This document shows positions 26,494 to 38,151 of a DNA stretch of 64,000 nt, piece by piece. The stretch is from Micromonospora sonneratiae (GTDB lineage Bacteria; Actinomycetota; Actinomycetes; Mycobacteriales; Micromonosporaceae): assembly GCF_042679305.1 (NCBI RefSeq), contig NZ_JBHTMP010000017.1:13551-77550 (forward strand). The letters run 5' to 3'. Made by a program: the position numbers and the translations under genes. Every line of letters begins with the position of its first letter. Position 1 is the stretch's first letter. The notes under the pieces are model-generated. The model was given only the letters and a program-made list of their open reading frames with translations. It ran no database searches and was not told the origin of the DNA.

Positions 26494-27450
26494 TTGCGGG
26501 CCGCGACAGTGGCCTCCATGGATTCGATGACGCTGATTCGGAAGATTGCCGCTAGCCAGGACGGGACCGTCACGCTCACCCAGGCGAACGCGGCTGGTCT
26601 GACCGTTCACGAGGTGCACCGACTGTGCCGTTCCGGACGTTGGCGTCGCCTGGCCAGAGCCGGCTATCTCGTTGATGCCGACCGGTACGCGGAGATCCCG
26701 CGCCGGGTACGCATCCGGGCCGCCGTCGCGTCGTTCGGCCGGAGTGCGGCGGCGGTGCTGGACACTGCCGCAGAGCTGCACGGGATCGCGGGCACTCGGC
26801 GGACGGAGGCGATTCACGTCTCCCTGCCAGGTCCAGCCGTCCGGCCCAGCCGGGACACCGATCCAGCTGTGATCATCCATCAACTGACCATCGGTGCGGC
26901 GCAGCTCTGCGACGTGGCGGGTATCCCGGTCACTCGTCCGGTGCGTACGGTTGCCGACATCATCGTCCGCGCGGACCGTTTCACGGCCGTCTCGGTGCTC
27001 GACTCGGCGGTCAACCGCCAGGTTGTCACGGCAGAGGAGTTCGCGATGATTCCGGGGCTGATCCGTGGCCGACGTGGTGCCGTCGCCGCTCGCGGTTACC
27101 TTGCCGAGTGCGATGGACGCGCCCAGTCGCCGCTGGAGACAAGGTTGAGGCTGCGGTGTGTGGACGGCAGGGTGGCGCCTGACGTGTTGCAGCATGAGGT
27201 TCGCGACCGGGACGGCTGTCTGCTCGGCGTCGGTGATCTGGCCTGGCTGGCGGCACGCCTGATCGGGGAGGCGGATGGCCGGGAGGTGCACGGCACGCCT
27301 GAGGCCGTCTACCAGGACCGGTGGCGGCAGAACCGGATCGTCAATGCCGGTTGGCGGATTCTGCGGTTCACCTGGGACGACACGATGCGGCCGGACTACA
27401 TCCCGTTCGTCGTCCGGAATGCGCTCGCTGCCTCCCCTCTACCGCGTTGA
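26494..27450 (+). CDS. DUF559/AbiEi-like endonuclease-domain protein (very-short-patch-repair-like C-terminus)
   Basis: The C-terminal region (GREVHGTPEAVYQDRWRQNRIVNAGWRILRF) resembles the DUF559 family common in actinomycetes. The gene is flanked by the two palindromic elements. The true start may be at Met 26518 or 26527. Confidence 0.6.
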   Translation: MRAATVASMDSMTLIRKIAASQDGTVTLTQANAAGLTVHEVHRLCRSGRWRRLARAGYLVDADRYAEIPRRVRIRAAVASFGRSAAAVLDTAAELHGIAGTRRTEAIHVSLPGPAVRPSRDTDPAVIIHQLTIGAAQLCDVAGIPVTRPVRTVADIIVRADRFTAVSVLDSAVNRQVVTAEEFAMIPGLIRGRRGAVAARGYLAECDGRAQSPLETRLRLRCVDGRVAPDVLQHEVRDRDGCLLGVGDLAWLAARLIGEADGREVHGTPEAVYQDRWRQNRIVNAGWRILRFTWDDTMRPDYIPFVVRNALAASPLPR

Positions 27451-30165: not shown

Positions 30166-30351
30166 CGGGCATCTCTCCTTCGACTTGTCGGCCACGGGGA
30201 CGGACTTCTCGTCCACCGGGACCCGGCTCAGCAGCGGACGGGCGCGATTGACAGAGCATGTCATGATCGCCGTGCCGATGCGGATGAGAAACGGTTTCAC
30301 CTGCTCCGAGTGGGTGCGCCGGGGGCGGGTAGCTGGGAGGGCGACGGTTCG

Positions 30352-30996
30352 ATGGGTGGGTTCGCCAGCGCGGTGCTCGACTTCCCGACCGTCGTCTTCA
30401 CGTTCCTGCTGGTGGTCGTCATCGGCTATTGGCTGCTCGTGCTGGTCGGCGTGGTCGACCTCGACGGTGACGCCGAAGCCGGCGGATCGGTGAACCTTCT
30501 GGCCGGGCTCGGGCTCGGCGGGCTTCCGGCCACAGTGGTCCTGTCACTTCTGATCGCGGTGGCGTGGTTCGTCAGCCTCGTCGGCACCGTGCTGCTCGAC
30601 ATACTCCTCGGGCTGACCGGACTCGTCCTGGTCGTGCTCTCGGTTTTCGTGCTGGTGGTGGCGCTGGTCTGCGCCTGGTCGGTCACCCGGTTGCTGGTGA
30701 TACCGCTGCGCCACCTGTTCCCGTCCAGCGCGGGCCCTTCCCGTACCGCCTTTGTCGGCAGGTTCTGTGTCATCCGTACCGGTCGGGTGACGGTCGACTT
30801 CGGCCAGGCCGAGGTGACGGCGGAGGACGGGTCGTCCGCTGTCGTCCAGGTGCGGCAGACCGGCGACGAATCCCTTGGTGCTGGCAGCACCGCCCTCATC
30901 TACGACTACGACGCTGACGGCGAGTTCTTCTGGGTCACGGCCATCGACGCCGAACTCCGCCCGGGCCACTCGCCCCATCGACCGAAGGAAATTTGA
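30352..30996 (+). CDS. NfeD/YqiJ-like membrane protein with C-terminal OB-fold (flotillin partner)
   Basis: N-terminal TM helices followed by a beta-rich C-terminal domain (VIRTGRVTVDFGQAEVTAEDGSSAVVQV). The stop overlaps the flotillin ATG (ATGA). Confidence 0.7.
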   Translation: MGGFASAVLDFPTVVFTFLLVVVIGYWLLVLVGVVDLDGDAEAGGSVNLLAGLGLGGLPATVVLSLLIAVAWFVSLVGTVLLDILLGLTGLVLVVLSVFVLVVALVCAWSVTRLLVIPLRHLFPSSAGPSRTAFVGRFCVIRTGRVTVDFGQAEVTAEDGSSAVVQVRQTGDESLGAGSTALIYDYDADGEFFWVTAIDAELRPGHSPHRPKEI

Positions 30997-33005
30997 TGGA
31001 AGTAATCACCACCGGGCTCGGCGTTCTGTTGGGTGTCATCCTTCTTGTCGTCATCTGCATCATGTTCATCGTCAGCCGACTGTTCCGGAAGGTGGAGCAG
31101 GGCAAGGCCCTGATCATCTCCAAGGTCCGGCGGGTCGACGTGACGTTCACCGGCGCGGTGGTCCTGCCGGTGCTGCACAAGGCCGAGATCATGGACATCT
31201 CGGTGAAGACCATCGACATCGAGCGGACCGGCAACGAGGGCCTGATCTGCCGGGACAACATCCGGGCCGACATCCGGATCACCTTCTTCGTGCGGGTCAA
31301 CAAGACCACCGAGGACGTGGTCAAGGTGGCTCAGGCGATCGGTACGGCCCGGGCCAGTGACCGGGAGACCCTGCAGGAGCTGTTCAACGCGAAGTTCTCC
31401 GAGGCGCTGAAGACGGTCGGTAAGCAGCTGGACTTCGTCGACCTCTACACCAAGCGGGACGAGTTCCGCGACCGGATCATCCAGGTCATCGGCACCGACC
31501 TCAACGGTTACAGCCTTGAGGACGCCGCCATCGACTTCCTGGAGCAGACCCCGCTGGCCCAGCTCGACGCCGCCAACATCCTGGACGCGCAGGGCATTCG
31601 CAAGATCACTGAGCTGACCGCGATCGAGCACGTCCGTACCAACGAGTTCCAGCGCAACGAACAGAAGGAGATCACCCGCCAGAACGTCGACGCCCGGGAG
31701 GCCATCCTGGAGCTGGAACGCCGGCAGGCCGACGCCGAGATCAAGCAGCGCCGCGAGATCGAGACGATGCGGGCCAGGGAAGAAGCGGAGATTTCCCGGG
31801 TACGGGCCGAGGAGCGGCTCAAGGCCGAGTCGGCCGGTATCCGTACCGACGAGCAGCTCGGCGTCCAGCAGGAGAACCTGGCCCGGGAGATCGCCGTCGC
31901 GGAGAAGAACCGGGAACGGGTCATCGCGATCGAGACCGAGCGGATCGAGAAGGACCGGCTGCTGGAGGTCATCGCCCGGCAGCGGGAGACCGAACTCTCC
32001 ACCATCGCCAAGGACAAGGAGGTGGAGGCGGAGAAGCGGTCCATCGCCGAGGTGGTCCGGGAGCGGATCGCGGTGGAGAAGACGGTCGCCGAGCAGGAGG
32101 AGAACATCAAGCGCCTGCGGGTGGTCGAGGAGGCCGAGCGGACCCGGCAGGCGGTGGTGATCCAGGCCGAGGCGGAGGCGCAGGAGAACCTGGTCAAGGA
32201 CATCAAGGCCGCCGAGGCGGCCGAGCAGGCGGCCAAGCACCGGGCCCGGGAGCAGATGGTGCTGGCCGAGGCCCGCCAGCAGGCGGCCGAGTTGGAGACC
32301 CGGGCGAAGATCCGGCTGGCCGAGGGCCTACAGGCCGAGGCGGCTGCCGCAGGCCTGGCCGAGGTGCAGGTACGCGAGCGGGGTGCCGAGGCGATCGAGC
32401 GGGTCGGCCGGGCCGAGGCGATCGTCGAGCGGGAGAAGGCGCTGGCGGTGGCCGAGGCGGTACGGGAGAAGCTCAAGGGCGAGGCCGAGGGTCTGACCGA
32501 GAAGGCAGCCGCGATGGCGGCCCTCGACGACGCGACCCGTGACCACGAGGAGTACCGCCTGCGGTTGGAGGCGGAGAAGGAGATCCGCCTGGCCGGCATC
32601 GACGTGCAGCGGCAGGTCGCCGAGGCGCAGGCCAAGGTGGTGGCGGCCGGCCTGGAGAAGGCCAACATCGACATCGTCGGTGGCGACACGGTCTTCTTCG
32701 ACCGGCTGATGGGCTCGATCACGCTCGGCAAGAGCGTCGACGGTTTCGTCCAGCACTCCGACGTCGCCCAGACCCTGGCGCGGCCGTGGCTGGACGGATC
32801 CTCGAACTTCACCGACGACCTGGGCAAACTGCTCGGCGCGCTGAACACCGCCGACGTGCAGAACCTCACCGTCTCCGCGTTCCTGATGCAGCAGATCAAG
32901 GCCGGTGGGTCGAACGCGGACAAGCTGCGGGAGCTGCTGACCGCCGCGCAGCGCCTCGGTGTGGCGGAGGCGCCGGTGGCCGCCCTCACCGGCGCGAAGA
33001 AGTGA
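30996..33005 (+). CDS. Flotillin-family SPFH protein (YqiK-like)
   Basis: N-terminal TM helix, SPFH/band-7 domain and a long EA-rich coiled-coil (flotillin repeats). Confidence 0.9.
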   Translation: MEVITTGLGVLLGVILLVVICIMFIVSRLFRKVEQGKALIISKVRRVDVTFTGAVVLPVLHKAEIMDISVKTIDIERTGNEGLICRDNIRADIRITFFVRVNKTTEDVVKVAQAIGTARASDRETLQELFNAKFSEALKTVGKQLDFVDLYTKRDEFRDRIIQVIGTDLNGYSLEDAAIDFLEQTPLAQLDAANILDAQGIRKITELTAIEHVRTNEFQRNEQKEITRQNVDAREAILELERRQADAEIKQRREIETMRAREEAEISRVRAEERLKAESAGIRTDEQLGVQQENLAREIAVAEKNRERVIAIETERIEKDRLLEVIARQRETELSTIAKDKEVEAEKRSIAEVVRERIAVEKTVAEQEENIKRLRVVEEAERTRQAVVIQAEAEAQENLVKDIKAAEAAEQAAKHRAREQMVLAEARQQAAELETRAKIRLAEGLQAEAAAAGLAEVQVRERGAEAIERVGRAEAIVEREKALAVAEAVREKLKGEAEGLTEKAAAMAALDDATRDHEEYRLRLEAEKEIRLAGIDVQRQVAEAQAKVVAAGLEKANIDIVGGDTVFFDRLMGSITLGKSVDGFVQHSDVAQTLARPWLDGSSNFTDDLGKLLGALNTADVQNLTVSAFLMQQIKAGGSNADKLRELLTAAQRLGVAEAPVAALTGAKK

Positions 33006-33012
33006 CGCCCGG

Positions 33013-36000
33013 GTGGCTGAGTTCGTGACCGGGTCCACCACCGTCGAATCGGGCGACCAGAACCGGACCGCCGACCAGGCGGGGATGGACGCCGGCACCT
33101 ACGACGTACTCCGGAACCGGCTGGCGGAACGCGCCACGGAGCTGGCCCGCCGGGCCGAGCAGCTCAACGCCCGACGGCTGGACGTCTTCGGCGGCACCGA
33201 GCTGCGGCTGCTCGGCACCGAGCGGATCCGTACGCAGCACAACTGCGTACCCCGCGACATCGTGTCGGTCGGCGGGCTGATGCTGTTCGGCTACAACGTG
33301 TTCATCGGGCTGAAGCCCGAGACGACGGTGGACGACGTCTTCTCGCTGCACCGGTTCACCCGCGAGGCGGCCCCGGACACCGGCGGCGGGGAGGTCTTCC
33401 GGTTCGCCGAGGTGGACCCGGTCGAGCTTCCCGAACTGCTACGTGACCAGCAGTTCGAGCGCGACTTCGGCGAACTCTACCGGTACTACCGGGAGACCCG
33501 GCTGCTGCAACTACGGCGGACCGACGGCCGGCTGCTGGCCATCTTCCAGACCGGTCCGCGTACCGAGGACATCCGGGTCCTGCGCTGGCGGGTCGACGCC
33601 GACGGGACGATCGGCTACCTCGACAACCGGGGCGAGCGCGACCACGTGTTCCCGCCCGCGCACGACTTCGAGTGGATCGAGACCACTCGTGAGGACCACG
33701 TGCTCGGTCGGCACCCGCACATCTCGATCCGGGGCGAGGTGTTCGTCGAGACGGTCGGCGGCAACCTCACCGTGAAGATCGAGAACAACACGGAGACCGG
33801 CGAGGGCATCTACGGCGAGCCGGTGGACGAGCCGCTACAGAGCCTGGCCGACGCCGACATCCACTACGCCGTCGTCGGTCCGCTGATCCTGCTCCGGATC
33901 CGGCCGTACAAGGAGACCGAGTGGCGGCACCTGGTCTTCAACACGACCACCAAGACGGTCGTACGTCTGGACGGCATCGGACAGGCCTGTCAGCGGTTGC
34001 CGGAGGACCACGGGATCATCTTCCCCGGGGGCTACTACCTGGCCACCGGGGTCAGCCGGACCTTCGACACGGTGGTCGACGACCTCGAGTTCGAGCGGGT
34101 CATCCGGTCCACCAACGGGGAGGACGTGCTCTACGTCTTCCATGCCCGCAAGGACGGTCGCAGCCTGCTGCTGCCGTACAACGTGATCCGTAAGGAGGTC
34201 GCCACCCCGGTTCCCTGCCACGGCTACTCGCTCTTCGACGACGGCACGCTGGTGGTGTTCCGGGCGACCTCCGAGGAGCCGACCCGGGTCCACCCGATGC
34301 AGATCTGGCAGACCCCGTACCTGTCCGACACCTACTCCGCCGCCCAGCCGGTCGGCAGTGGTCCGTTGGAGCGGGTCGGTAACGCAGACCTGGTACGCGG
34401 CATCTCGGACTGCCTGTCGGTGGCCCGGATGGTGGGCGAGATGACCCCGGCGGTCGGGGTGTTCGAGGCACTGATCGCCGGGTGCACCCGGGCCTTCGAC
34501 CACTACCACTGGCTCGGCGACCCGGAACTGGACGACCTGGGCGGGCCGCTGGCCGAGGTCCGGGCGATCGCGCAGCAGGTCCTGGACGAGTTCGAGAAGG
34601 TCCAGTCGCTCACCGCACAGGCAGCGGCGACCCTGGAGGAAACCGCCGCCCGGATCGCCTCCCTGGTCCGCCGGGTACGCGGCGAAGCGCCGCTGACCGC
34701 CGACGACTGGGTACGCCAACTCGCCGGGCTGCGTCAGGCGCAGGGCCAGTTGGTGACCCTGCGTGAGCTGCGGTACGTCGACGCGGCCCGGATCGACCGG
34801 CTGGCCGCCGAACTGGCCGAGGAGTTGACCGCCGCCGCCCAGCGTGCGGTCCGGTTCCTCCAGCAGGAGGACGCCTTCGCCGACTACCACGTCGAGGTCG
34901 ACCGGTTGGCCACGGCCGCCGGCGCGATCAGCACCGTGGCCGAGGCCGGGCCGGTCCGGGACCGGCTGGCCGAACAGGCCGAAGGGCTACAGATCGTCAC
35001 CGAGGTGGTGGGCAGCCTCGACATCGCCGACGCGACCGTACGGACCGGCATCCTGGAGCAGGTCGCCGAGGTGCTGGGCGGGGTCAACCGGGTCCGGGCC
35101 ACGTTGGACGGCCGTCGGGCGCAACTGCTGGCGGCAGAGGGGCGGGCCGGCTTCGCCGCCGAGTTCGCCCTGCTCGGGCAGGCGGTCACGGGTGCGCTGG
35201 CGGTGAGCGACACCGCCGAGAAGTGCGACGAGCAGCTGGGCCGGCTGCTGCTCCAGGTGGAGAACCTGGAGTCCCGCTTCGGCGAGTTCGACGACTTCCT
35301 CGCCGAGTTGGCGACCAGACGTACCGACATCTACGAGGCGTTCTCGTCGCGCAAGCAGGCACTGCTCGACGAGCGGGCGCGCCGGGCCGACCGGCTGGTG
35401 TCCTCGGCCGAGCGGATCCTGGTCAGCGTACGGCGTCGGGTCGGCGGGCTGCGTTCCCTCGACGAGGTGAACACCTACTTCGCCTCCGACCCGATGGTCA
35501 CCAAGCTGCGCGGGGTGGCCGACGAGCTGCGTACCCTGGGCGACCAGGTGCGGGCCGACGAGCTGGAGGGGCAGGTCAAGGCCGCTCGCCAGGAGGCCGG
35601 CCGGACGCTGCGTGACCGGATCGACCTCTACCGCGACGGTGGTGACACGATCCGGTTGGGCCGGCACGCCTTCGCCGTCAACACCCAGTCGATCGACGTG
35701 ACCCTGGTTCCGCACGACGGGCGGATGATGGTCGCCATCACCGGCACCGACTACCGCGCACCGGTACGGGACGAGGCGTTCGAGCAGACCCGGGCGTTCT
35801 GGGACCAGTTGCTGGTCTCCGAGTCCGCCGAGGTGTCCCGGGCGGAGTACCTGGCCACGTCGATCCTGGCCGAGGCGGAAGCCGGCACGTCGGGACTGAC
35901 CCTCGACCTGCTGCACGAGACGGCGGTCGGCCCGGCCGGGTTGCGCGACCTGGTCCGCCGCGCGGCGGAGGGGCGGTACGACGAGGGCTACGAGCGGGGT

Positions 36001-38151
36001 GTGCACGATCACGACGCGGCCCTGATCCTCGATGCCCTGCTGCGTCTGCACACCGCGGCCGGGCTGCTGCGTTATCCGCCCGGGGCGCGGGCCGCCGCCC
36101 AGCTCTTCTGGGCGTACGGCACCGGGGACACGGCCCGGGCCGGGTGGTCGAGACGGGCCGCTTCCCTGGGCCGGGCCCGTGCCCGGTTCGGCCGTACGGC
36201 CGCCGTCGGTGAACTGTGCGCGGAACTGGCCGACGCGGCTACCGCGTACCTGCGCGAGGTCGGCCTCGACGACCAGTTGACCGCCGTCGACCTGGCCGGG
36301 GAGTACCTGTTCGAGGAGCTGGCGCGGGAATCGTCGGCCGGCATGGCTGCCGGGACGCCACGCGGGTTCGTGACCGGGGCCGGGGCGCGGACGCTGCTCG
36401 ACCGGTTCCGTCGGACGCTGGGCGGGCCGCAGTCCAGGTCGACCAAGGAGTTCGACGACGACCTGCGGGCGCTCGGTGACGACCTTGCCGCCCGGCACCA
36501 GTTGGTCGTCGCCTGGCTGGAGGCCTACCTGGGCACCGTCCCGGCCGGCGCTGCCGCCGACCCGGGAGCCGGTGTCGCTGCTGATCCGGGAGCTGGCGTC
36601 GCCGCCGATCCGGGCGGTCTCTCCGCGTACGACCTGCCGGAGGCGGTCGCCATCGAGCTGTGCGGTGCCAGCCTGCCCCGGTACGAGTCGGCAGCCAACC
36701 TGTCGACGGAGGTGGGTGGGCTGTTGGCCACCCATCGGCGCATCGTCGGGTCGAACCTGACGCTGCGACTCGACGAGACCCTGGCCCGGACCCGACGGTT
36801 CCGCAACGAGCAGGTGCCGGCCTACCGGGCCTACCAGCAGCGCCGTAACGAACTGGTGGCCCGCGAACGGCAGCGGTTGCGGCTGGAGGAGCACCAGCCG
36901 AAGGTGATGAGCGCCTTCGTCCGTAACCGGCTGCTGGACGAGGTCTACCTGCCGTTGATCGGTGACAACCTGGCCCGGCAACTCGGCGCGGTGGGTGACG
37001 GCAAGCGGGTGGACCAGATGGGTCTGCTCCTGCTGATCTCGCCACCCGGCTACGGCAAGACGACCCTGATGGAGTACGTCGCCAGCCGGCTCGGCCTGGT
37101 GTTCGTCAAGGTCAACGGTCCGGCACTGGGCTCGGCCGTCACCTCGCTGGATCCGGCCGAGGCGCCCAACGCGACCGCCCGCCAGGAGGTCGAGAAGATC
37201 TCGTTCGCGCTGGAGGCGGGCAGCAACGTGCTGCTCTACCTGGACGACATCCAGCACACCTCGCCCGAGCTGTTGCAGAAGTTCATCTCGCTGTGCGACG
37301 GGCAGCGTCGGATGGAGGGGGTGTGGGACGGCCGCACCCGCACGTACGACCTGCGGGGCAAGCGGTTCGCCGTGTGCATGGCCGGCAACCCGTACACCGA
37401 GTCGGGGCAGCGCTTCCGGGTGCCGGACATGCTGGCCAACCGGGCCGACGTGTGGAATCTCGGTGACGTGCTCGCCGGGCGGGACGAGATCTTCGCGTTG
37501 AGCTACGTCGAGAACGCGCTCACCGCCAACCAGGTGCTGGCCCCGCTGTCCACGAGGGAACGCGGCGACGTGGAGCTGCTGGTCCGGCTGGCCCGGGGCG
37601 ACGAGACGGTACGGGCGGACCAGTTGAGTCACCCGTACTCGCCGGTCGAGTTGGAGCAGATCGTCTCCGTACTGCGCAAGCTGCTGCGGGTCCAGCAGGT
37701 GGTGCTGACCAACAACCAGGCGTACATCGCGTCGGCCGCGCAGTCGGACGCGTCCCGTACCGAACCGCCGTTCCAGTTGCAGGGCTCCTACCGGAACATG
37801 AACAAGCTGGCGGAGCGGATCGTCCCGGTGATGAACGACGAGGAACTCGAGATGGTGATCGACGACCACTACCGGGGCGAGGCGCAGACCCTGGCCTCGG
37901 GGGCCGAGGCGAACCTGCTCAAGCTGGCTGAGTTGCGTGGCCGGCTCACCGCCGAGCAGGCCCGCAGGTGGGCCGAGGTGAAGGCCGGTTACCTGCGGGC
38001 CCGGGCGCTCGGCGGGGACCGGGACGATCCGGTGAGTCGTGCGGTCGGGGCACTCGGCCTGTTGGCCGACCGGGTCGGCGACGTGGAGTCGGCGATCCAG
38101 CAGGTGGGTGCCGGGGTACGCCGGGTCGAGGTGGGCGGAGCGGCCGGGTGA
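33013..38151 (+). CDS. Giant (~1713 aa) flotillin-associated protein with C-terminal ATPase motif; the family is annotated 'DNA repair ATPase' in databases
   Basis: It starts 8 nt after the flotillin stop; GTG 33013 is tentative. Largely alpha-helical with an internal 24-nt tandem repeat (AADPGAGV x2.5 at 36551-36620). C-terminal region: Walker A LLLISPPGYGKTTL (about 37040-37070) and a Walker-B-like VLLYLDDIQH. Confidence 0.8.
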   Translation: MAEFVTGSTTVESGDQNRTADQAGMDAGTYDVLRNRLAERATELARRAEQLNARRLDVFGGTELRLLGTERIRTQHNCVPRDIVSVGGLMLFGYNVFIGLKPETTVDDVFSLHRFTREAAPDTGGGEVFRFAEVDPVELPELLRDQQFERDFGELYRYYRETRLLQLRRTDGRLLAIFQTGPRTEDIRVLRWRVDADGTIGYLDNRGERDHVFPPAHDFEWIETTREDHVLGRHPHISIRGEVFVETVGGNLTVKIENNTETGEGIYGEPVDEPLQSLADADIHYAVVGPLILLRIRPYKETEWRHLVFNTTTKTVVRLDGIGQACQRLPEDHGIIFPGGYYLATGVSRTFDTVVDDLEFERVIRSTNGEDVLYVFHARKDGRSLLLPYNVIRKEVATPVPCHGYSLFDDGTLVVFRATSEEPTRVHPMQIWQTPYLSDTYSAAQPVGSGPLERVGNADLVRGISDCLSVARMVGEMTPAVGVFEALIAGCTRAFDHYHWLGDPELDDLGGPLAEVRAIAQQVLDEFEKVQSLTAQAAATLEETAARIASLVRRVRGEAPLTADDWVRQLAGLRQAQGQLVTLRELRYVDAARIDRLAAELAEELTAAAQRAVRFLQQEDAFADYHVEVDRLATAAGAISTVAEAGPVRDRLAEQAEGLQIVTEVVGSLDIADATVRTGILEQVAEVLGGVNRVRATLDGRRAQLLAAEGRAGFAAEFALLGQAVTGALAVSDTAEKCDEQLGRLLLQVENLESRFGEFDDFLAELATRRTDIYEAFSSRKQALLDERARRADRLVSSAERILVSVRRRVGGLRSLDEVNTYFASDPMVTKLRGVADELRTLGDQVRADELEGQVKAARQEAGRTLRDRIDLYRDGGDTIRLGRHAFAVNTQSIDVTLVPHDGRMMVAITGTDYRAPVRDEAFEQTRAFWDQLLVSESAEVSRAEYLATSILAEAEAGTSGLTLDLLHETAVGPAGLRDLVRRAAEGRYDEGYERGVHDHDAALILDALLRLHTAAGLLRYPPGARAAAQLFWAYGTGDTARAGWSRRAASLGRARARFGRTAAVGELCAELADAATAYLREVGLDDQLTAVDLAGEYLFEELARESSAGMAAGTPRGFVTGAGARTLLDRFRRTLGGPQSRSTKEFDDDLRALGDDLAARHQLVVAWLEAYLGTVPAGAAADPGAGVAADPGAGVAADPGGLSAYDLPEAVAIELCGASLPRYESAANLSTEVGGLLATHRRIVGSNLTLRLDETLARTRRFRNEQVPAYRAYQQRRNELVARERQRLRLEEHQPKVMSAFVRNRLLDEVYLPLIGDNLARQLGAVGDGKRVDQMGLLLLISPPGYGKTTLMEYVASRLGLVFVKVNGPALGSAVTSLDPAEAPNATARQEVEKISFALEAGSNVLLYLDDIQHTSPELLQKFISLCDGQRRMEGVWDGRTRTYDLRGKRFAVCMAGNPYTESGQRFRVPDMLANRADVWNLGDVLAGRDEIFALSYVENALTANQVLAPLSTRERGDVELLVRLARGDETVRADQLSHPYSPVELEQIVSVLRKLLRVQQVVLTNNQAYIASAAQSDASRTEPPFQLQGSYRNMNKLAERIVPVMNDEELEMVIDDHYRGEAQTLASGAEANLLKLAELRGRLTAEQARRWAEVKAGYLRARALGGDRDDPVSRAVGALGLLADRVGDVESAIQQVGAGVRRVEVGGAAG

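Follow-up and report, generated by a model that had tools for sequence, protein, structure and literature searches.

A gene cassette of Micromonospora sonneratiae that links a YqiJ/YuaF-like protein and a flotillin to a large MoxR-like AAA+ ATPase, and a possible role in scaffold remodelling

What would a large protein that databases name "DNA repair ATPase" do immediately behind a flotillin gene? The question is raised by a locus of Micromonospora sonneratiae, analyzed here within a 64,000-nucleotide stretch of contig NZ_JBHTMP010000017.1 (the window). Three tightly spaced ORFs run in the same direction on the plus strand: A (30352-30996), B (30996-33005), and C (33013-38151). Their GC3 values are 0.85, 0.94, and 0.92, respectively, and the encoded proteins match M. 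sonneratiae entries P0121 and P0001 at 100% identity. Since the GC3 frame signal continues unbroken along the 5.1-kb ORF of C, this gene carries no frameshift, and the possibility of a pseudogene, raised in a previous sequence-only reading, can be set aside. A, B, and C are clearly coding, intact ORFs. Apparent A-B and B-C gene fusions in two related loci (L030 and L075) proved to be artefacts, as stop codons are present.

Both gene junctions differ slightly from that reading. The A/B junction is TGATG (stop TGA at 30994-30996, start ATG at 30996-30998), a 1-nt overlap and not the 4-nt ATGA coupling placed at 30996, and C, given as 1,713 aa after 8 nt, follows B after a 7-nt spacer, with an annotated GTG start at 33013 and a product of 1,712 aa. 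A second possible start is the ATG at 33085, as alignments with homologues begin only at about residue 20-28. The locus is flanked by a divergent MFS transporter gene upstream and a convergent OYE-type flavin oxidoreductase gene downstream; as these genes are unrelated to it and lie on the opposite strand, A-B-C forms a self-contained unit. A promoter and terminator scan returned nothing above chance. The features are as follows.

30352-30996, plus strand: gene A, multi-pass membrane protein of 214 aa, probably YqiJ/YuaF (short NfeD)-like, whose beta-rich C-terminal domain may be OB-like (GC3, hydropathy, YqiJ comparisons)
30996-33005, plus strand: gene B, 669-aa YqiK-type flotillin by homology (BLASTP to YqiK, flotillin-1 profile match, hydropathy)
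33013-38151, plus strand: gene C, 1,712-aa soluble protein with a predicted DUF3686 beta-propeller, a helical stalk, and a MoxR-like AAA+ module (100% identity to P0001, GC3, Pfam)
33139-34509, plus strand: DUF3686 region of C, a predicted long helix at the N terminus and, after it, a beta-propeller of roughly 7 blades (Pfam residues 44-500, AF2, Foldseek)
34327-36537, plus strand: helical stalk, small beta domain, and helical domain of C (AF2 secondary structure; DUF7902, E=6e-30)
36544-36614, plus strand: 24-nt tandem repeat, 3.0 copies, AADPGAGV units in a disordered linker (TRF score 93)
36928-37599, plus strand: AAA+ module of C
37642-38148, plus strand: conserved C-terminal helical domain of C (AF2 helices at model residues 351-517)

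The flotillin assignment of B agrees with the sequence-only reading. B shows 30% identity over 454 aa to Escherichia coli YqiK (BLASTP E=1e-37), and its family profile matches flotillin-1 (9bq2, E=6.5e-6) as well as prohibitin. Its architecture is that of an N-terminal transmembrane segment (a single one by hydropathy, residues 1-34), an SPFH domain, a long Glu/Ala/Arg-rich coiled coil (E, A, and R dominate residues 200-540), and a C-terminal extension. B itself matched neither Band_7 (PF01145) nor Flot (PF15975) of Pfam even at E<=10. Close homologues, named "flotillin family," bear PF01145, which is present in about 40% of the homologues of at least 80% identity among the matches listed, so that the failure of B to match seems to reflect a score near the limit of the model and not a missing domain. 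By homology, then, B is a bacterial flotillin of the YqiK/COG2268 type within the SPFH superfamily.

The identity of A is less firmly established than that of B. Hydropathy places hydrophobic segments at residues 2-40 and 49-120. Comparison with E. coli YqiJ gave a BLASTP E value of 1e-3, and the family profile aligned to YqiJ with an hhalign probability of 87% (E=4e-6). The top PDB match of the profile, YuaF (2k14), was nonsignificant (E=0.58); the Pfam NfeD and YqiJ models matched neither A nor any of 22 members of its family, and a distant homologue in locus L091 gave a weak YqiJ_N match. Thus, of the earlier designation as a YqiJ-like NfeD protein, the YqiJ part holds at the profile level and the NfeD part is weak at the sequence level; we regard A as a probable YqiJ/YuaF-like protein with multiple transmembrane segments.

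C was previously described as mostly helical, a description that captures its long stalk but is incomplete. Pfam matches comprise DUF3686 (E=2.9e-222, aligned over the full model length), DUF7902, AAA, and AAA_5, and hydropathy analysis revealed no transmembrane segment, as for a soluble protein. The AF2 model (mean pLDDT of 83) contains strands at residues 66-434, and Foldseek matches of the N-terminal region in the PDB are beta-propellers with E values of 1e-4 to 1e-6, namely, those of Elp1, the clathrin terminal domain, PON1, prolyl oligopeptidase, and tricorn. Residues of about 66-434 are therefore predicted to form a beta-propeller. The stalk that follows has helices of 48-58 residues in the AF2 model and carries DUF7902 at nt 34870-35121, beyond which Pfam found nothing in the middle and C-terminal portions of the protein. 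Next come a small beta domain (AF2, residues ~880-918) and a helical domain with an invariant EGYxxGVHDxDA motif at residues ~992-1003; G997, H999, D1002, and R1027 are invariant alignment columns, and Pfam gave no match for residues 930-1195. The C-terminal helical domain, likewise devoid of a Pfam match, contains an EPPFxLQGSYRNMNK motif (nt 37762-37806) and the invariant residues P1586 and R1595. The internal 24-nt repeat encoding AADPGAGV was confirmed by TRF at 36544-36614, where AF2 pLDDT falls below 50 (residues 1180-1200). In a subregion alignment of close relatives the length of this linker is hypervariable, and at this position P0027 carries another repeat. Within the hypervariable linker, the 24-nt repeat is an expansion specific to the species.

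The ATPase motifs noted in the sequence-only reading were both located, Walker A (GYGKTT) at nt 37048-37065 and the Walker B-like LYLDD at nt 37234-37248. The module further contains a beta-hairpin before sensor 1, the sensor 1 motif MAGNP from nt 37378, and an Arg-finger region, PDMLANRAD, at nt 37423-37449. It is closest to the MoxR ATPases (AAA_5, clade 7) CbbQ and NorQ, followed by midasin and dynein. Walker B reads LYLDD-IQH and not the canonical hhhhDE, with DD nearly invariant in the C family; hydrolysis may therefore be slow or switch-like. The Walker A lysine, the sensor 1 asparagine, R1478, and R1595 are kept across relatives of C at 26-80% identity, a pattern which implies that C would be a functional and strongly constrained ATPase. 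Read directly from the sequence, the loop that follows beta2 (NGPALGSAVTSLDP) has no aromatic pore-loop motif of the kind found in threading unfoldases.

These features speak against the database name itself. That C is a DNA repair ATPase is hardly credible, as the name derives only from that of Pfam DUF3686 ("ATPase involved in DNA repair") and from weak, P-loop-only matches to RuvB (E=1.9e-3 in Pfam and 4.6e-4 in NCBIfam; the curated cutoffs are 27 and 282 bits, respectively), whereas Pfam detected no DNA-binding or nuclease domain in C, its structural neighbors are MoxR chaperones, and its obligate gene neighbors encode membrane proteins. Our search found no literature on DUF3686/PF12458, nor any that pairs "DNA repair ATPase" with flotillin. 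The doubt that the sequence-only reading had cast on the label was thus well placed.

MoxR family ATPases usually act with a VWA partner. In one alternative, C would serve a different target as a MoxR-type maturation chaperone, for example in cofactor insertion or complex assembly, with the flotillin cotranscribed for coregulation or localization only. C shares only 14-16% identity with MoxR family members (CbbQ, NorQ, and RavA) and midasin/Rea1, differs from them in Walker B (DD rather than DE) and in the roughly 1,300 residues of propeller and stalk fused N-terminally, and lacks a VWA/MIDAS partner. No VWA gene is conserved near C in 80 loci, nor is a candidate substrate gene conserved nearby, and B-C adjacency is near universal down to 28% identity, which is hard to explain by coregulation alone. 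We consider this alternative improbable.

Gene neighborhoods gave the clearest evidence of association. B lies directly upstream of C on the same strand in all 76 informative loci (those with upstream sequence), which span Actinomycetota, Myxococcota, Acidobacteriota, and one Clostridia MAG, and the order of a ~200-aa protein, a ~650-aa Band_7 protein, and C is kept in 9 of 10 distant representatives (26-37% identity), the exception being a solo homologue of C (L082). The large ORF is thus conserved beside flotillin, and the suggestion of a membrane-scaffold-associated ATPase machine is supported by this linkage. A homologue of A precedes B in 61 of the 76 loci; some 20 Streptomyces loci lack A or have a truncated copy. 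Apart from A, B, and C, no flanking gene is conserved across the 80 loci; one candidate for a fourth gene, seemingly conserved upstream in 26 loci, is in fact the shadow ORF of a PucR-type regulator gene that runs divergently in Streptomyces. Identity of C is 75-80% within Micromonospora and 70-80% across actinobacterial orders and declines smoothly with taxonomy, reaching about 50% in Myxococcota, as would fit an inheritance that is largely vertical; the architecture is retained to 26% identity. In some genomes the cassette adjoins envelope stress genes, with the orders CesT_Tir-PspA-A-B-C (L092), A-B-C-DUF2170-PspA (L094), and YjfI-PspA-...-A-B-C (plasmid pQBR103), and TelA is its neighbor in L086, L087, and L093. 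A tblastn search with the PspA operon proteins of pQBR103, PspA included, detected none of them either in the window or among the 80 related loci, and a CesT/Tir-PspA dyad was found beside the M. sonneratiae cassette neither among its neighbors nor by tblastn.

Large size, a propeller "sensor," and a Walker B of the DD type are features typical also of STAND NTPases. C has these traits, HipA or RNA ligase genes lie near some loci, and the cassette is carried by megaplasmid pQBR103, so an anti-phage or conflict system might be envisaged, in which C is the sensor ATPase and the membrane proteins are membrane-disrupting effectors. However, none of the three proteins has a significant match in PADLOC-DB 2.0 (the best, IetA at E=1.4e-3, covers about 30 P-loop residues only). 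Among 50,697 phage records the cassette does not occur, and of 72,556 plasmid records only 13 carry it, for the most part those of megaplasmids or chromids. Nor is there a nuclease, TIR, or protease effector; the genes flanking the cassette in the window are housekeeping genes, and the identity pattern fits vertical inheritance. We therefore judge a defense role very improbable. Among the roles proposed in the sequence-only reading, membrane remodelling and envelope stress gain from the PspA, CesT/Tir, and TelA neighbors, and conflict or defense gains nothing from the PADLOC, phage, and plasmid data.

The association of A, B, and C is not new. Ravi et al. (mSystems 2024, PMC11237479) described the same operon as PspA-associated YqiJ/YuaF, Band-7/flotillin, and a "novel AAA+ ATPase," gave the Dokdonia donghaensis ANH61663.1 neighborhood as an example, mentioned an "abbreviated" form, and proposed a role in sub-membrane dynamics, in one paragraph of contextual inference with no experiments. 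A further counterpart is found on pQBR103 of Pseudomonas fluorescens SBW25. The M. sonneratiae locus has the same triad in the same order (YqiJ-like, Band-7/flotillin, beta-propeller/coiled-coil/AAA+) but, unlike the full form, no CesT/Tir, PspA, or polyamine genes nearby. It is an ordinary orthologue of a cassette already in the literature, and very probably represents the abbreviated, PspA-less form. The yqiJ-yqiK loci of E. coli and Shewanella (SO1376-SO1377) contain homologues of A and B in the same order and with tight spacing but lack C. B is 116 residues longer than YqiK, and an alignment of the C-linked B proteins revealed a common C-terminal extension of roughly 90 residues that is missing in YqiK and partly missing in the pQBR103 protein.

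From this synteny and architecture, we infer that C most likely docks onto flotillin and acts as a remodelling motor under membrane or envelope stress. B would insert through its N-terminal transmembrane helix and oligomerize into a flotillin/SPFH cage on the cytoplasmic membrane face, with A as a small membrane partner. C would assemble into a ring through its single MoxR-type AAA+ module, and its propeller and long helical stalk, judging from synteny, would dock the ring onto the flotillin assembly. Through ATP turnover, C could then assemble or disassemble the scaffold or free the partners that it sequesters, and this remodelling may serve membrane or envelope stress maintenance alongside PspA-type proteins from other loci. 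Such a mechanism would resemble that of Vps4, an ATPase recycling a membrane-bound polymeric scaffold of ESCRT-III (PspA, Vipp1), a likeness to which the PspA genes linked to the cassette in some genomes add, or that of midasin/MoxR pulling on a partner. On balance, we lean toward the explanation that combines the cassette identity with a scaffold-remodelling motor; the remodelling mechanism taken by itself is tentative. A narrower and rather doubtful version makes C a dedicated ATP-driven assembly/disassembly motor of flotillin cages, a midasin-like single ring that would hold the flotillin C-terminal cap with its propeller and stalk and so extract subunits. The points that we counted against a remodelling motor are the lack of a VWA partner and of an aromatic pore loop, the DD Walker B, the solo L082 homologue, the loss or truncation of A in Streptomyces, the failure to detect PspA in the window and the 80 related loci, and the uncertain interdomain arrangement of the AF2 model (pTM of 0.52).

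The same synteny evidence would also accommodate client-directed quality control, in which membrane proteins that are damaged or have not assembled are gathered by the flotillin cage, and C, instead of remodelling flotillin itself, acts on these clients by extracting them, unfolding them, or handing them over. This follows the logic of HflK/C-FtsH or prohibitin-m-AAA, minus the protease domain. Pairing of an SPFH scaffold with a functionally coupled membrane AAA+ machine recurs (HflK/C-FtsH, discussed in PMC13086221), and the Foldseek propellers include peptide-gating ones (prolyl oligopeptidase and tricorn). Nevertheless, neither C nor the cassette has a protease or other effector domain, C lacks a canonical aromatic pore loop, and, in contrast to FtsH and m-AAA, it has no transmembrane segment and belongs to a different AAA+ clade, being MoxR-like and not FtsH- or Clp-like; B, too, differs from HflK/C in being a flotillin-type SPFH protein. 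We regard this alternative as unlikely.

Flotillins occur widely in bacteria, yet how they work is disputed and the phenotypes associated with them are mild. A flotillin clade to which a ~1,700-residue ATPase is obligately linked provides a concrete enzymatic entry point, and the cassette ties flotillin to the PspA envelope stress network. The name "DNA repair ATPase," borne by thousands of database entries, is almost certainly wrong. Should C indeed act as a motor of flotillin cages, no other organism would offer an earlier example of a flotillin scaffold regulated at the expense of energy, and the enzyme would give a handle on the actual role of bacterial flotillins.

The window is high-GC, actinobacterial DNA, and it carries three consecutive genes on the plus strand within 30352-38151: A (YqiJ/YuaF-like membrane gene), B (YqiK-type flotillin gene) and C (giant AAA+ gene).

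30352-30996, plus strand: A, 214 aa, GC3 0.85
30996 (ATG)-33005, plus strand: B, 669 aa, GC3 0.94
33013 (GTG)-38151, plus strand: C, 1712 aa, GC3 0.92

The products of B and C are 100% identical to Micromonospora sonneratiae database proteins, and the GC3 frame signal is unbroken across the 5.1-kb C ORF. Third-position GC and this continuous frame signal indicated that A, B and C are real genes and that C is not a pseudogene; thus, the three-ORF arrangement proposed in the sequence-only reading stands, with its coding signal intact and free of frame breaks. Two details of that reading were amended: the A/B junction is TGATG with a 1-nt overlap rather than ATGA, and C is annotated as 1712 aa beginning 7 nt past the B stop, not 1713 aa at 8 nt. 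An ATG at 33085 is a possible alternative start of C. Upstream of the operon lie purA, an AbiEi-like ORF and purD. A adjoins a divergent MFS transporter gene, and C borders a convergently oriented gene for an OYE-type flavin oxidoreductase. Since these neighbors are unrelated, we consider A-B-C a self-contained unit. Scans for consensus promoters and terminators were uninformative. The divergent starts of the MFS gene and A are only ~51 nt apart (window 30301-30351), so either their promoters overlap or one start is mis-set. The ORF between purA and purD (26494-27450, plus strand, 318 aa) combines AbiEi_4 antitoxin-like and MTES_1575 (REase-like) domains at a GC3 of just 0.78.

B is a membrane-anchored flotillin. 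The single protein gave no match to Pfam or NCBIfam, but BLASTP aligned it with E. coli YqiK over 454 residues (E=1e-37), its family profile matched flotillin-1 and prohibitin structures, and its close homologues, annotated as flotillin or YqiK, contain PF01145. It has a single N-terminal TM helix followed by a long coiled coil rich in Glu, Ala and Arg. Flotillins linked to C share a conserved C-terminal extension (WLDG...DL..LL...DV.NLT; B residues ~575-669, window ~32720-33002), which is missing in E. coli YqiK and partly missing in the protein of pQBR103, the P. fluorescens SBW25 megaplasmid bearing a PspA-linked form of the cassette; C may dock at this extension. For A, hydrophobic segments span residues 2-40 and 49-120, and the C-terminal domain is beta-rich. 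A matched E. coli YqiJ at E=1e-3 in pairwise BLASTP and, as a family profile, with 87% probability and E=4e-6 in hhalign; against the PDB, YuaF was the best match, at a non-significant E of 0.58. Pfam NfeD/YqiJ models matched none of 22 A-family members, and the A homologue of the distant locus L091 showed a weak YqiJ_N match. A is thus probably YqiJ/YuaF (short NfeD)-like, a link less firm than that of B to YqiK.

C lacks TM segments and matches Pfam DUF3686 at residues 44-500 (E=3e-222), along with DUF7902 and, weakly, AAA and AAA_5. Using a diverse alignment, AlphaFold2 produced two confident models (residues 1-1200 and 1195-1712; mean pLDDT 83 and 87, respectively), which predicted the following order of parts:

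N-terminus: helix, 40 residues
residues 66-434: beta-propeller, with exclusively propellers as PDB neighbors
residues 440-873: stalk of very long helices
after the stalk: small beta domain
residues ~992-1003 (window ~35983-36018): invariant EGYxxGVHDxDA, in a second helical domain
before the AAA+ module: disordered linker, site of the repeat
after the linker: AAA+ module, one copy
after the AAA+ module: conserved helical C-terminus

The protein had been described as mostly helical; this is not so, as ~370 residues of its N-terminal part are beta. The EGYxxGVHDxDA domain, which has no Pfam match, contains invariant G997, H999 and D1002 and also R1027, and the motif could serve in binding or catalysis. 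The 24-nt tandem repeat proved real, with three copies at 36544-36614 encoding AADPGAGV x3 in a linker with pLDDT <50. This linker varies by 0 to ~25 extra residues among close relatives, and at the equivalent position Plantactinospora P0027 carries an unrelated, independent repeat, EAGSAGG x3. The repeat is ordinary slippage in a tolerant linker and not a functional feature.

Both nucleotide-binding motifs were found as reported, Walker A (GYGKTT) at nt 37048-37065 and Walker B (LYLDD-IQH; residues 1408-1412) at nt 37234-37248. At the second acidic position of the latter, Asp replaces the Glu that usually serves in catalysis, a substitution nearly invariant across the family. By sequence and models, C is a soluble MoxR-like AAA+ protein, conserved at its catalytic site, that carries a propeller and a stalk. 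An alternative is a MoxR-type maturation role unrelated to flotillin, which we regard as quite improbable; a VWA partner is absent, which counts against a standard MoxR system. Extraction of clients by C is somewhat less improbable, though still unlikely. Two features of C, a pore loop without aromatics and the DD form of Walker B, speak against simple threading.

The C family is large and constrained, comprising >6,500 sequences at E<=1e-10 in a 90%-identity clustered collection and 1,411 representatives at E<=1e-3 in a 50%-identity set. Even homologues as distant as 26% identity are still ~1,600-1,900 residues long, and identity between actinobacterial orders is unusually high (70-80%). A scan of species-representative genomes yielded 80 loci, 76 with upstream sequence. 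A B homologue lay directly upstream of C on the same strand in all 76, including Myxococcota, Acidobacteriota and a Clostridia MAG, whereas an A homologue was detected in 61. In Streptomyces, A is absent from ~14 loci (e.g., L033, L038, L040, L045, L049, L055, L059, L065, L070 and L074) and, in ~7 others (e.g., L025 and L080), is cut down to the TM part with loss of the OB-like domain, while B and C remain intact. The invariant core is thus B plus C. Clustering of all flanking ORFs from the 80 loci revealed no further conserved gene with one exception, a divergent PucR-type regulator (GGDEF_2 + HTH_30) directly upstream in ~26 Streptomyces loci (e.g., L044:1459-2691, minus strand), a candidate dedicated regulator of the cassette. 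A conserved ORF upstream of the Streptomyces cassettes was rejected as a shadow ORF of this regulator gene.

Among ten distant representatives located on contigs (26-37% identity), nine kept the triad, and the linkage of B and C is near-obligate. The exception (P0382, 26% identity; L082:7253-12830/L083), in a Bacteroidota-like context, has neither a flotillin nor a YqiJ-like neighbor; a PRiA4_ORF3-domain gene precedes it. PspA recurs in four extended contexts: L092 (CesT_Tir-PspA-A-B-C), L094 (A-B-C-DUF2170-PspA), L085 (PspA downstream of the cassette) and pQBR103 (YjfI-PspA-rhomboid-DUF2491-DUF350-DUF1190-GspS-A-B-C). TelA (toxic-anion/tellurite resistance family) likewise recurs, adjoining the cassette in 3 of the 10 distant loci (L086:13176-14303, L087:747-1955 and L093:13502-14608); a term search of the PSP paper PMC11237479 returned no "TelA". 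A defense system, another reading of such a cassette, is very unlikely: PADLOC defense models gave no significant match, and the C family occurs in 0 of 50,697 phage records and just 13 of 72,556 plasmid records.

Ravi et al. 2024 (PMC11237479) describe three-gene operons with one gene for a 3TM protein of the YqiJ/YuaF prototype, sometimes with CesT/Tir-PspA alongside, and report PspA-less abbreviated operons to be widespread. The architecture seen in this locus and the gene contexts of pQBR103 and L092 establish that their AAA+ protein is the DUF3686 family. The locus typifies a cassette that comparative genomics had already recognized and is not a new kind of system. Our literature search found no experimental work on the cassette; the study of Shewanella SO1376/SO1377 deals with a two-gene form that lacks C. 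Term searches of the 2026 Pseudomonas SPFH survey (PMC13086221) and of the PSP survey of Popp et al. 2022 returned no mention of it.

Taken together, these results support the original reading of a flotillin operon with a membrane-scaffold-associated ATPase. We propose that C would assemble into a ring, that its propeller and stalk would dock it onto the flotillin assembly, and that it would use ATP to remodel the scaffold in membrane or envelope stress. A role in DNA repair, as the database name "DNA repair ATPase" implies, is highly improbable: as suspected, Pfam/NCBIfam scans, the domain scan of C and the literature gave the label no backing. The DUF3686 family, whose annotation is wrong, is well suited to experimental study.
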